A DNA stretch of 36,078 nt from Octopus sinensis (taxonomy: Eukaryota): contig NW_021836590.1 of assembly GCF_006345805.1 (NCBI RefSeq), positions 1 through 36,078 on the forward strand, in the 5' to 3' direction. The position numbers and the translations under genes were made by a program. The notes below the pieces were generated by a model, which worked only from the letters and a program-made list of their open reading frames with translations, ran no database searches and was not told the DNA's origin. Below are positions 1,025 to 27,240 of the stretch, one piece after another; position 1 is the stretch's first letter; every line of letters starts with the position of its first letter.

Positions 1025-1320
1025 GATGTAAGGTATACTAGCCATTCAATATGGAACCACTAAGGGTGGATGTTACTGTAGCTTGTAGCCCCAAGGGAAC
1101 ATCGTCTCAAGCTACAAGCTACAGTAACACCCACCCTTACTGGTTAGCCATATTGAGATGGCTAGTATACCTTACATTGTCGTGAAGTTACTGTTTACAT
1201 CTCGTTCAGAGATTTATTATTTCTTGCATACAGTTTTTCGAGATCAGTGACGAAAAGTTACTGGAAAAACGATATATAAGGATTTGCATTGGGACTCCCT
1301 TCATCGAAAACTGGTGATTG

Positions 1321-2133
1321 GGGCTCTGGGGTTCGACGAGGACCAGCTTACCAACCTGTTTAAAAAGACTTTCAGGACGGGGTATTTGGATAATTTTCAA
1401 AGATCCCTGGCCTGGCAGTGTTATAGGAATGCTTTACCTGTTCGCGAGAAGTTATCGCGGCACGGAATTTCAGTGCCACCGACATGTCCAAGATGCGGGT
1501 TGGACGATGAAACCGTCCAGCACGCTTTTGTACACTGTCGGCAGTTGTCAGACTTGATAAGTTACGCAGAACACGTGTTATCGCATCTGGGACGAGTACA
1601 GCTGTCGGCTGAGTCTATGATTAAGATGATACCGCCAACTGGACTCTCGAAGGAAGGTGAGGCATGTTTTCACTGCACGGTTGCAGTAGTAAAAGAATGC
1701 ATGTGGCGTACAAGAATGGAAGGAGTCGCAATAGGATCCTTTGTCTCAGGCCCCGGCTTGCTCACTTACTTCAGATATCATCTGAAGAGCAAAATGGGGC
1801 TGCAAAAGAAGACCTTACCACGAGGTGTGTATGAAAAAAGATGGAAGGAAGTGGCGAAAAAGGTGGGTGTCAGAAACCCAGTTTAACTATGGATGGAGAA
1901 GAGGAAAGGAAAGCTGCGGGGCCTTATAGGTTGCGGGGTTTAATATATCGGTAAGATTTCAATCTAATGTAATGTTATATAGTCAATGCAAAGGACAATT
2001 TAAATACAGTTTTTTGTATAATGAATAATCCATATATTGTGGAAATTTTTAAACGAACCACTTAACTGTTTTTTGTATGTATGTCCTGCTTTGTTCTTCT
2101 ATGTACTGATTTTATAATCGTAATAAAGAATTA
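1321..2133 (+). mobile_element. 5'-truncated Tx1/L1-clade LINE (ORF2 C-terminal zf-RVT domain plus 3'UTR)
   Basis: LAWQCYRNALPVREKL...CPRCGLDDETVQHAFVHC zf-RVT motif; stop at 1886; AATAAA near the end; exact 18-bp TSD atcgaaaactggtgattg at 1303-1320 and 2134-2151. Confidence 0.9.
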
Positions 2134-3580: not shown

Positions 3581-3874
3581 TTAAGAATGAAATACGAACG
3601 TGAGGCAAACTTTCCAATGAGTAGCTACTGCGGTAGCAACTTTACAGTTAGCATCGACAAAATATATAGGAAATATGAGAGCAGAGAATGGAGAAAGAAG
3701 CGCCATTACAGTTGTCTTTGTAGCACCACCTTCTTTTCTTCTGACACCATCATTATCACCATCACCATCATCATCATCAGTATCAACATAGCCATTATCT
3801 TCGTCATCATCACCATCATCATCATCATCATCATCATCATCAGTAACAACATAGCCATTATCTTCGCCATCACC

Positions 3875-3906
<32 letters not shown>

Positions 3907-4320
3907 CATTATCATCATCATCATCATCATCATCATCAATATCAGTATCAACATAGCCATTATCTTCGTCATCACCATCATCATCCTCCTCATCATCATC
4001 ATCATCAATATCAGTATCAATATAGCCATTATCTTCGTCATTACCATCATCATCATCATCATCATCATCAATATCAGTATCAACATAGCCATTATCTTCG
4101 TCATCACCATCATCATCCTCATCATCATCATCATCATCAATATCAGTATCAACATAGCCATTATCTTCGTCATCATCACCATTATCATCATCATCATCGT
4201 CATCATCATCGTCATCATCATCCTCATCATCATCATTATCATCATCATCTTCATCTTCATCATCATCATCATCATCATCATCATAAACATTATCATCATC
4301 ATCATCATCATCATCATGAA

Positions 4321-4359
<39 letters not shown>

Positions 4360-4465
4360 CATCATCATCATCATCTTCATCTTCATCATCTTCATCATCA
4401 TCATCATCTGTAGCTGCAGCAGCAGCTTCAGCATCTTCGGCAAATTGGATTGAGTGGCGAATGAC
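3581..4465 (-). CDS. Candidate Asp-rich exon (294 codons), absent from the ORF track
   Basis: ttctacttttatag|GTC acceptor, then VIRHSIQFAEDAEAAAAATDDDDDEDD...(DEDNGYVDTDIDDD)n...GVRRKEGGATKTTVMALLSPFSALIFPIYF...; no stop until 3583-3581. Could also be only a triplet microsatellite. Confidence 0.3.
3745..4408. repeat. (ATC)n array with a higher-order ~60-nt unit containing atcagtatcaacatagccattatcttcg
   Basis: About six copies of the insert between 3777 and 4170; triplet frame preserved throughout. Confidence 0.95.
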
Positions 4466-7053: not shown

Positions 7054-8332
7054 CGAGGGGGTACCCAAAAGAAACCGGAATTTTGCGATATTATTTTATT
7101 CACTTAGTTCTAAATAATCGGCACAGGAGTGGCTGTGAAGGAAGTAGCTTGCTTACCAACCACATGGTTCCGGGTTCAGTCCCACTGCGTGGCGCTTTGG
7201 GCAAGTGTCTTCTACTATAGCCTCGGGCCGACCAAAGCCTTGTGAGTGGATTTGCTAGACGGAAACTGAAAGAAGCCCGTCGTATATATGTATATGTATA
7301 TATGTATGTGTGGTGTGTGTGTTTGTGTGTATGTGTTTGTCCTCCAACATCGCTTGACAACCGATGCTGGTGTGTTTATGTCCCCGTCACTTAGCGGTTC
7401 GGCAAGATAAACCGATAGAATAAGTACTAGGCTTCCAAAGAATAAGTCCTGAGGTCGATTTGCTCGACTAAAGGCGGTGCTCCAGCATGGCCGCAGTCAA
7501 ATGACTAAAACAAGTATATCGCCTCCAAAGTATTCTCCATTTGAAGCAAAGCATCGGTCCAGGTGCGTTTTTCCACTATTCGAAGCAGTGCTGGAACTTC
7601 TGTCAAGTGAGGCCATTTAACGCCTCCGTCGTTTTTCTCTTCACCTCTTCCACATCTGCAAATTCCGTAGCACCAGCTTTCATCACCAGTGGTGACCTTT
7701 GAAAAACGGCCCGGATCAACTTGCAACTTTTCTTTCAGTTCACGAGACGCATTCAGTCAGTGACTGCTTTTGATCTTCCGTGAGCAAGCGAGGCACAAAT
7801 TTTGCTGCAACGTTTTTCATTCGTAATTCCTCGTTCAAAATTCGTTGACAATCATATAAACAAGTTTGTCAATTGTTCGGTGACGGTCCTCCAAGATCAG
7901 TTCATGAATTTTCATGATGTTTTCATTCGTTCGGGACGTCAATGGTCGTTCTGAATGAGTTTGGTCTTCAAGCGACAAGGAACCATTCCTTAAGCATGAA
8001 AACCACTCGTAAACTTGTGTTTTGCTCATGGCAGCTTCCTTATAAGCTGTTTGAAGCATGGCAACTGTTTCGGTCGCCATTTCCCCCAGCAGAAAACAGA
8101 ATTTCACAGATGTACGCTGTTTCTTCGTTTCAGGCATCGCAAAAATCGATGAACAGAGGAGGAACACTTCAAAATAAAGATGTACCATGTGGCAGTACGA
8201 ATACACACGACGACACCGGCCGCAAGACTGATGCCTGAGGGTCACATCAAGTAGCTTCTAGCGGCAGAAGCCTGAACTACAACGAGCTTGTCTCCCACAG
8301 TAACGTTTCCGGTTACTTTTGTGTACCGCTCG
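7054..8332 (-). mobile_element. Internally deleted mariner transposon carrying a nested SINE
   Basis: TA-flanked TIRs cgagggggtacccaaaagaaaccggaa / ttccggttacttttgtgtaccgctcg. HTH region QRTSVKFCFLLGEMATETVAMLQTAYKEAAMSKTQVYEWF; catalytic motif KVTTGDESWCYG. Confidence 0.92.
7119..7514 (+). mobile_element. SINE family A nested in the mariner
   Basis: Full match to family A. Confidence 0.9.
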
Positions 8333-17462: not shown

Positions 17463-17763
17463 ATATACAGAATCTATATTTGAATCTCTCAATCTATTTG
17501 TTTGTCAGCCATTCTGTCTAGCTATCCATATCTACTTAACCATTTGTTTAGCAACATACCTAACTTTCTATATTTATCTATCGACTTATTTATCTGTCTG
17601 CCTATCTATTATGTGTTTGTATATACTTTAATATGTAAAATGCAAAGTTAACCAAAGAAAAATACGAAACAATATGAAAAGGTTTATTTTCACTTTGATT
17701 TTTCTGTTCAGTAACTGTATGCACGTGCGCCACGAAGATATATATAATATATATATATATATT

Positions 17764-17812
<49 letters not shown>

Positions 17813-18000
17813 CATTATATAAAAGGGCTTAGTAAATAAATTACTTTGCCACATACTGAAACTCATTAGAAAATCAGCAGCTAAAAAAATTTTAAACTAT
17901 TTCTAATACTTAAAGAAATCTCTCTCTATATAGTGTTTGCTCAAGTCACTCACGAAAGATGAAGGTAAAAACATTAAAACATCACAAATGCAAAGGTTAT

Positions 18001-18051
18001 TTGAACGTACGTTTTCTAGATAGTCAAATCGACATTTCTTTCGTCAGCTCA
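18001..18051 (-). ncRNA. Minimal type I hammerhead ribozyme (inverted-arm copy)
   Basis: tgag CTGACGA aagaaatgtcgatttgactatcta GAAAA c-gtac-g TT caa. Confidence 0.7.
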
Positions 18052-18475
18052 GAATTCCTTGGTTCGGATTTGGGAAACTGAAAGCGGGAGCATACCTTTT
18101 AGCTTCTATCACTTCTGAAGATCTGCTCGTACTATCAGTGGTTAGCAAATTCAAAATATGCAAGCGAAGAATTTCTTTACATACTGAATACTTTACATAC
18201 TGAATACTTGGTAAAATTGATTAATAATTAATTAATTTTACCCTCAATTGTTGAAATTATAATTTATTTCTCTCTATTTAATGCTTCGGTCTTTACCGAT
18301 AAAACAAAGTGTTTACTAATTTTAACCCACGCTGGTGGAAAGGGGAGAGCAGAATTCTTCGCTTGCTATTTTGAATTTGCTAACACTGATAGTCCGAGCA
18401 GATCTTCAGAAGTGATAGGAAGCTAAAAGGGTATGCTCCCGCTTTCAGTGTTCCCAAATCCGAACCAAGGAATTC

Positions 18476-18526
18476 TGAGCTGACGAAAGAAATGTCGATT
18501 TGACTAATCTAGAACGTACGTTCTCA
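18476..18526 (+). ncRNA. Minimal type I hammerhead ribozyme
   Basis: tgag CTGACGA a-aga-aat-gtc-gattt-gac-taa-tct-a GAA c-gtac-g TT ctca. Stem I tgag/ctca; palindromic GUAC loop; GAA here and GAAAA in the mirror copy suggest consensus GAAA. Confidence 0.78.
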
Positions 18527-18804
18527 ATAACCTTTGCATTTGTGATGTTTTAAAATGTTTTTACCCTCATACTTCGTGAGTTGACTTGAGCACACTATAT
18601 GAGAGAGATTTTCTTTAAGTATTAGAAATAGTTTAAAAAAATTTTTTAGCTGCTATTTCTAATGAGTTCAGTATGTGGCAAAGTAATTTTTTTACTAAGC
18701 CCTTTTATATAATGTAATAATTTGAATCGCCTTAAATGGTCCCTTTACTACTGAATACTTGGTAAAATTGATTAATAATTAATTTAATTTTACCCTCAAT
18801 TGTT

Positions 18805-18857
<53 letters not shown>

Positions 18858-19234: not shown

Positions 19235-19870
19235 GTGATAAAAATCAAACATCCAGTCAACATCATGGTGTTTGGAGTGATCATTAGTGATGACGACACT
19301 AGACCTCCATTCATCTTCCCACGCGGCTTCACATTCAACACAGAGACCTACAGAAGTGTCTGAAGAAAGTAGTGCTGCCTTGGGTCAAGAGAGTGGCTGC
19401 TGGAAGACCCTATGTCTGGCAACAGGACTCTGCACCATGCCACACAAGCAAGAGAACCCAGTCATGGCTGTCAGACAATTTCTGCGACCACATCACCCCT
19501 AACATCTGGCCACTTAATTCCCCAGATTGCAACCCCCTTGATTATTATCTGTGGTGCACATTTGATTGGGAGACCAACAAAACTCCTTGTAACATCAAAG
19601 ATGAACTGAAGGCAAGGATTATGGCAGCATTCACCATCTTAAAAGAGATTCGAACTTGAAACGTCAGATGAATATAGTGTTGCATGATATTCTGAAATCG
19701 TCTGGAGGTTATGGTTGAAGCCAATGGCTATTTTATTGAATAAATTTACTCTTTAGTATTTCAAGATATTTTTATGTAATTTTGGTAAATATACCTGTTA
19801 AAATGAGATGTCAGTGATATTTTCAATTTTCGTAATTTAGACGAGAATAATTCTCGTCTAAATTTACCTG
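19235..19870 (+). mobile_element. maT (DD37D) Tc1/mariner transposase 3' remnant with right end
   Basis: KHPVNIMVFGVI...YVWQQDSAPCHTSKRTQSWLSDNFCDHITPNIWPLNSPDCNPLDYY, with 37 residues between the 2nd and 3rd Asp; ends cctg-TA. Confidence 0.9.
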
Positions 19871-26823: not shown

Positions 26824-27240
26824 AGCGACGAGCTGGCAGAAACGTTAGCACGCCGGGCGAAATGCGTAGCCGTATTTCGTCTGCCGTTACGTTCTGAGTT
26901 CAAATTCCGCCGAGGTCGACTTAGCCTTTCATCCTTTCGGGGTCGATAAATTAAGTACCAGTTACGCACTGAGGTCGATGTAATCGACTTAATCCGTTTG
27001 TCTGTTCTTGTTTGTCTCCTCTGTGTTTAGCCCCTTGTGGGCAGTAAAGAAATAGGTATTTCGTCTGCCGCTACGTTCTGAGTGCAAATTCTGCCGATGT
27101 CGACTTTGCCTTTCATCCTTTTCGGGGTCGATTAAATAGGTACCAGTAACGCACTGGGGTCGATGTAATTGACTTGATCCGTTTCTCTGTCTTTGTTCGT
27201 CCCGTCTGTGTTTAGCCCCTTGTGGGCAGTAAAGAAATAA
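26824..27240 (+). mobile_element. SINE family B, two-unit form, with TSD
   Basis: Imperfect TSD aagaatataagtgagagta / aagaatataagcgagaata. Confidence 0.9.

Follow-up and report, generated by a model that had tools for sequence, protein, structure and literature searches.

A non-coding hammerhead repeat family of Octopus sinensis with two fixed outer ends and head-to-head insertion in (TA)n tracts

The window, the whole stretch of 36,078 nt of Octopus sinensis DNA analysed here (contig NW_021836590.1 of assembly GCF_006345805.1), contains an insertion with its flanking target tracts at positions 17738-18855. Elsewhere in the window lie a LINE-type fragment with a zf-RVT match (1251-1883, plus strand), a mariner transposase fragment with a Mos1-type HTH (7835-8254, minus strand), a long (CAT)n tract (3748-4408) and a SINE-like repeat consisting of a 185-bp two-copy tandem (26872-27239), while the stretch at 19303-19659, which has no Pfam match, is presumably another transposase fragment. 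The insertion comprises the following features:

17738-17810, no strand: left (TA)n target tract
17811-18176, minus strand: inverted arm, ending at site A, covering unit positions ~92-468, 3' end facing left, tail-less
17995-18057, minus strand: type I hammerhead motif of the inverted arm, with indels beside GAAA and in the 3' strand of stem I in this assembly
18175-18176, no strand: head-to-head junction with 2-nt microhomology (CT), read from the sequence
18175-18190, plus strand: additional 16-nt copy at the junction, an exact duplicate of 18191-18206
18191-18806, plus strand: direct arm, ending at site B, one whole unit preceded by 62 nt of the upstream unit
18470-18532, plus strand: type I hammerhead motif of the direct arm
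18711-18716, plus strand: site A, one of the two fixed outer ends, read through in the direct arm
18712-18806, plus strand: ~95-nt tail spanning sites A to B, on the direct arm alone
18807-18855, no strand: right (TA)n target tract

A preliminary description of this locus had placed an inverted copy of the unit ahead of the direct one, a 16-nt duplication at their junction and the whole in (TA)n, all of which is borne out. The segment 17811-18173 is the reverse complement of 18353-18716 at 92% identity over 374 columns (7 substitutions, 21-22 gap columns, E 1e-142), (TA)n tracts border the insertion on both sides, and the exact 16-nt junction copy is likely the result of slippage during end joining. 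No joint among those listed from four contig sets covers the junction of this locus. The same description saw a terminally redundant unit with a period of 551 nt and one hammerhead. The redundancy is real, with 18191-18252 recurring at 18743-18804 (62 nt, 97% identity, offset 551-552), but 551 nt is not the family unit, which has a median of 556 nt, and two hammerhead motifs are found rather than one, on opposite strands of the two arms. In family contigs from the four contig sets, extra bases occur at several of the places where arm or unit is gapped, and the A missing from GAAAC is present in two of four runs; the 551-nt period and the broken motif are therefore specific to this copy. Since 5' truncation is variable while the outer ends are fixed, the 62-nt redundancy is a by-product, the mere inner truncation point of a direct arm of 1.1 units.

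In the plus-strand hammerhead, stem I is formed by TGAG (18476-18479) and CTCA (18523-18526), followed by the core CTGACGA (18480-18486), GAA(A)C and a palindromic GTAC loop, and cleavage is predicted after GTT at 18522. The type I core is intact in neither of the two window copies, the plus-strand copy reading GAAC instead of GAAAC and the minus-strand copy carrying indels in the stem I/III flank, which may represent either decay or assembly error. Rfam scans returned no hammerhead at the gathering score and none at E<=10, and the hammerhead call, which the preliminary description had made for the unit, therefore rests on family comparison, by which it is supported. Among 260 copies, found by the motif search itself so that core conservation is overstated, CUGANGA occurs in 214 (position 7 being U in 152, C in 48 and A in 14), and GAAA in 249 of 255. 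The cleavage triplet is GUU in 220 copies, GUA in 32, GUC in three and GUG never (H = U/A/C), and the stem I pairs are UGAG/CUCA (212), UGAG/CUCG (22) and CGAG/CUCG (11); one subfamily, with 35 of the 260 copies, carries a U4C core change (CCGAUGA). Pairing of the stems holds in 99% of cells in 36 distinct copies, compared to 24-49% when the strands are slid, and covariation is modest, being equalled in 17-23 of 500 shuffles. At the family level, the CUGANGA, GAAA and UH core elements and the three stems of a type I hammerhead are thus all found. Stem III consists of 2 bp with a palindromic GUAC loop, stem I of 4 bp, and the base of stem II is U.U, A.A or G.U. A 2-bp stem III with a palindromic loop is a form described in a section of PMC4209133 as requiring a dimer fold, and the family hammerhead is predicted to require the dimer fold likewise and to self-cleave.

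A unit search of the genome assembly (G000, 2.72 Gb) yielded 2,278 first-look candidates, of which 40 were scored. Exact patterns for the outer ends matched 977 times (A end plus TA) and 858 times (B end plus TA), with no match for the reversed controls, while the intact-core hammerhead pattern matched 3,553 times (control 2) and that of the 3' half 4,334 times. By eye, a partner among the 74 listed B ends is found for 15 of the 81 A ends listed in C1, and from this pairing rate the union of the A- and B-end matches genome-wide therefore comes to near 1,600 insertions, as a lower bound. The median unit period is 556 (range 540-565, n=68), and the seven natural units that served as references have 85-95% identity to the unit of L011, whose fold has a z of -6.7 against 100 shuffles. 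The units are tandem and non-coding, have a GC content below 45% and carry one type I hammerhead each, as do non-LTR retrozymes, and form tandem arrays of up to at least 14 units. The array at L232:330-8551, of at least 14 units, runs off the fetched stretch and contains a few variants common to subsets of its units. The linkage to a long ORF that would have told against the preliminary description is not seen: the longest stop-free stretch in a natural dimer is 68 aa and no RT + GIY-YIG ORF lies inside the element. A search for a hidden ORF in the long A-B pairs and in a 5-kb gap found arrays or, in L226, an independent Penelope-like element (PLE). The family is very probably a non-autonomous PLE, that is, an animal non-LTR (PLE-type) retrozyme. 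It is an already-known kind of element, set apart by its long tail and an unusually clean insertion record.

Outer ends were mapped at 163 loci after removal of seven duplicates of one insertion; no call was obtained for L193 and L222, and one locus was complex. Site A ends fall at unit positions 463-483, a spread of ~20 nt, and site B ends at unit position 562, with 66 of 83 at GAAAT(T)ATA. The two sites lie ~97 nt apart. The outer ends always run into TA, TATA is present in both sites, and in 34 of 42 direct copies TA also precedes the 5' end. The target consists purely of TA repeats. Inverted head-to-head arrangements account for 115 of the 162 mapped rows, from which four picked as pairs and three cut by the locus edge were set aside, leaving 108 callable insertions. 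Among these, 103 combine an A with a B end, one is AA, two are BB and two join B to another point (binomial p 5e-27 against 50:50, on 103/106), and the tail, of ~95-99 nt, is on one arm only in 103 of the 108. The partner end was B for all 56 insertions picked by A and A for 32 of the 35 picked by B, and 15 of the 17 picked by similarity were AB. A-only direct insertions and 10-nt B stubs also exist. At L211 (with L212 and L213 duplicate-like), L223 and L215, nothing but the tail (unit ~460-562) is inserted, with a TA tract on either side, as would result from a B cDNA halted at A. In an alignment of the copies, variable permutation around a fixed 551-nt circle would have supported a circular RNA template, according to the preliminary description; because the outer ends are fixed at two sites and only the inner ends vary, such free permutation is not supported.

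The same A/B end rule is found in a non-coding sister family (L121-L145; e.g. L139:700-1715 and L143:1411-2110) with a ~600-nt unit (by eye) and 1,933 first-look candidates, in which 12 of 13 insertions are AB and one is BB. This family is 64-70% identical over the 3' half and has its own hammerhead with a long stem II and a GUA triplet. The hairpins of the 3' module are kept in it, and the site-A stem shows a compensatory change between family and sister family (CAGUAUGU/ACAUACUG versus CGGUAUGU/ACAUACCG).

The inner 5' ends (272) are spread over the entire unit. The preliminary description had proposed reverse transcription of a template of more than one unit, and this is upheld by the 104 of 272 arms that are longer than one unit and the 162 of 267 that span the hammerhead cut. 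Among the joints of 107 AB pairs, 67 have overlaps, 11 are blunt and 29 contain inserts, with an overall median overlap of 1 nt, and the joints show microhomology of 1-4 nt or small slippage repeats; nine of the 17 inserts of at least 5 nt repeat adjacent sequence, as does the 16-mer in the window. In 33 of the 107 pairs the inner ends of the two arms coincide on the unit to within 15 nt, as against a mean of 7.3 pairs and never more than 20 in 10,000 permutations, and in 36 the A arm is longer than the B arm. The joints of L165 and L197 are perfect fold-backs centred on the palindromic hammerhead stem III. Two further patterns were considered and rejected. An inner end at the hammerhead cut (266-283) is present in 13 of 156 insertions, which is not significant given that 18-nt intervals elsewhere have 8 as the median count and reach 19, and arm lengths are equal modulo the period in nine cases as opposed to 6.7 expected (p 0.22). 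At L106:2904-3264 the end of an arm coincides exactly with the predicted hammerhead cut, and two 9-nt slippage repeats follow it.

These insertions are probably products of one-RNA twin priming by a trans-acting Penelope-like RT/GIY-YIG protein at both cut (TA)n strands. An array would give rise to an uncleaved multimeric RNA transcript, a PLE dimer would bind its structured 3' module and nick both (TA)n strands, and one active site would begin cDNA at A and the other at B, with UAUA-TA primer pairing probably helping. Extension of both cDNAs would then proceed 5'-ward, in many cases reaching one and the same position of the unit, and they would be joined head-to-head by microhomology; an arm that remained minute or was lost would leave a 'direct' copy, and hammerhead-made circles may seed long arrays. 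In LINE-1 twin priming, two DNA ends prime one RNA and the inverted 5' part is joined by microhomology, with a second priming site that varies and arms that barely overlap. In the Octopus family, by contrast, neither priming site varies, and one stretch of RNA is copied in both arms, with an overlap of tens to thousands of nt. Five of the 108 callable insertions depart from the A+B rule, and the tail of ~97 nt compares to 30-40 nt in the literature, both of which speak against twin priming. A PLE protein has been described which cuts and extends both strands, is predicted to be dimeric and starts at two internal sites defining the tail (PMC11167929); the in vitro start site is, however, not homologous to the cut DNA, which counts against the step of UAUA pairing.

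A different template, the circle, was envisaged in the preliminary description and in the model outlined in part of PMC7229834. On this reading the principal route would be rolling-circle reverse transcription of a monomeric ~556-nt circular RNA sealed at the hammerhead cut site, and priming would still be at A and B. The arrays of at least 14 units (L232), the many arms crossing the cut site, the strong unit fold and the conserved hammerhead core are all in keeping with such a circle. Substitutions between the units of one insertion (median 3.3) are also fewer than those separating them from the nearest other insertion (6.8). Nine insertion-private alleles occur in every unit of the insertion concerned, a pattern expected of a circle and a point against the twin-priming explanation; a further 142 private alleles are singletons. 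Every one of these points also fits uncleaved transcripts of homogeneous arrays, and the outer permutation is not variable. Unit-specific variants mirrored across the arms tell against the circle more directly. In L189 (5 + 3 pieces), three variants are restricted to the two outermost units and two to the two second units, with units 3-4 unmatched, while L056 and L071 have one outer-register variant site each; L045, L074 and L201 have mirrored variants in both arms, with inseparable registers. As a monomeric circle gives identical units, such mirrored arms cannot derive from one, and as conversion would pair units from the centre, the L189 variants are not attributable to hairpin gene conversion. 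Fifteen variant sites common within one arm only, together with a cross-arm allele in another register in L067, indicate that later duplication or conversion occurs, and the circle-versus-tandem test by private alleles is mixed overall. Judged from these sequence variants, which place the outer-register evidence in three insertions, two of them single-site, some insertions appear to be one heterogeneous multimer copied twice (L189, and L056 and L071 on single sites). Of the circular or tandem RNA template originally suggested, it is thus the multimer that is retained and the monomeric circle that is set aside for these three insertions; for other insertions a circle is a possible template, and circular RNA is a possible source of arrays. 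As the main route, the rolling circle is unlikely.

Less probable again is the use of two separate RNAs, one per strand, with an asymmetric dimer enforcing one A and one B start. This would account for the A+B rule and the unequal arms, and transcripts from one donor would share variants. A single donor, and one and the same unit, would, however, have to supply both RNAs, the arms of one insertion are always of the same subfamily where compared, and the excess of fold-backs is more simply explained by one shared RNA end. A single TPRT event at B, followed by fold-back self-priming of the cDNA and a stop at A, an idea put forward for inverted PLE junctions in a part of PMC3846280, is very improbable. 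The outer-register mirroring would be expected here too, and 33 of the 107 joints are near-perfect fold-backs, several of them at palindromes, with the B arm longer by about the tail in 28. The other 74 joints are not fold-backs, though, and since the A arm exceeds the B arm in length in 36 of the 107 pairs, and in four fold-backs, it is no copy of the B arm in those pairs; the fixed stop at A would also be left unexplained, and A-only direct insertions exist. An artefact of assembly, or a palindrome formed in a satellite at the DNA level, is brought to mind by a window that is a whole small contig and by differences between arm and unit that are mostly 1-nt indels (7 mismatches, 22 gap columns). 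This reading is refuted for the family and has a negligible probability, as the same anatomy with site-specific ends recurs at more than 100 unrelated loci, which lie on large contigs and have unique flanks, and is repeated in a second family.

Twin priming from one RNA may be extended to a broader proposal with an even chance of being right: the insertions would be the genomic record of concerted twin TPRT by a PLE dimer on one RNA with two structure-defined start sites, and retrozymes would integrate from uncleaved multimers, the hammerhead circle being at most an array seed. If true, concerted twin priming would explain the inverted pLTRs and one-ended tail of PLEs in general. The origin of the tandem and inverted insertions and of the one-ended tail is named as an open question in a passage of PMC8557442, and the integration of animal retrozymes is presented as a hypothesis in sections of PMC7229834 and bioRxiv 10.64898/2026.07.22.740005. 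Counts of A/B pairing, or proof that both arms derive from one RNA, were not found in searches of an open-access library, subscription journals and repeat databases lying outside its scope. With insertions numbering well over a thousand, this short and young family allows the rules of A+B pairing, outer-register mirroring and fold-back excess to be counted, and supplies a 100-220-nt cis element for in vitro assay.

The animal non-LTR retrozymes portrayed in parts of PMC7229834 and bioRxiv 10.64898/2026.07.22.740005 share with this family the tandem arrangement of non-coding units low in GC, the type I hammerhead in each unit, the occurrence as dimers to multimers and a proposed dependence on PLEs, and the ~556-bp unit lies inside the 51-972 bp range given in a passage of the preprint. 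The words 'inverted' and 'microsatellite' are absent from the main text of PMC7229834 and the relevant passages of the preprint describe no ends, whereas the mapping of the O. sinensis family covers outer ends fixed at two sites, inverted arms and the targeting of (TA)n. Circles and cleavage are demonstrated for retrozymes of other species in those same sections, as opposed to a family known from assembled sequence, and among the 30 elements compared in O. sinensis there is no homologous autonomous pLTR, a further difference from the retrozymes as they are described there.

The preliminary description had likened the inverted arm to Penelope, and this likeness holds for the fixed 3' ends, the 5'-truncated inverted copy, the partial tandems, the one-ended tail and the (TA)n target. 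Partial tandems, an inverted 5'-truncated copy, a tail often at one end only and a preference for (TA)n are listed as PLE features in a section of PMC8557442. Portions of PMC8557442, PMC3846280 and PMC11167929 on the EN+ PLEs (Penelope/Poseidon, Neptune and Naiad) add two start sites, palindromic or microhomology joints and a hammerhead in the repeat. In contrast to these, the Octopus family is without an RT/GIY-YIG ORF and has a longer tail, TATA in both start sites matching the target and arrays of at least 14 whole units. The Chlamys non-autonomous elements, e.g. MRC1, are similar in that they derive from PLEs, are non-coding and have pLTR-like insertions in multiple copies, head to tail, according to part of PMC8557442, where their 3' ends are likened to that of their autonomous partner and where Chlamys and Naiad are without the canonical hammerheads that are present in the Octopus family.

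From the anatomy of the insertions we infer that the family depends on PLEs. A GIY-YIG search of the genome gave 5,029 candidates, with 149 of the 150 scored being matches, and many RT+GIY-YIG elements are present. Sequence common to the 3' end of the unit was found in none of the 30 elements fetched from these 149 matches (mostly one family), barring two neighbouring separate insertions, and the first 100 of the 3,553 matches to a relaxed hammerhead pattern all belong to this retrozyme family. The RT+GIY-YIG elements of the genome likewise run out into TA and contain variant hammerheads, and Pfam confirms the RT and GIY-YIG domains in L098. PLE ORF fragments near a few loci lie outside the arms, and the full-length PLE at L226:3600-7400, which has inverted repeats of its own, separates two insertions that belong to different subfamilies. 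L098, L097, L107, L111 and others represent an abundant autonomous PLE family with CxxC before a C-terminal GIY-YIG, frames of up to ~780 aa and a (TA)n target, which we take to be Neptune-like. Elements of this type carry a UUGAUAA (U3-A8) hammerhead variant ~65 nt before the 3' end.
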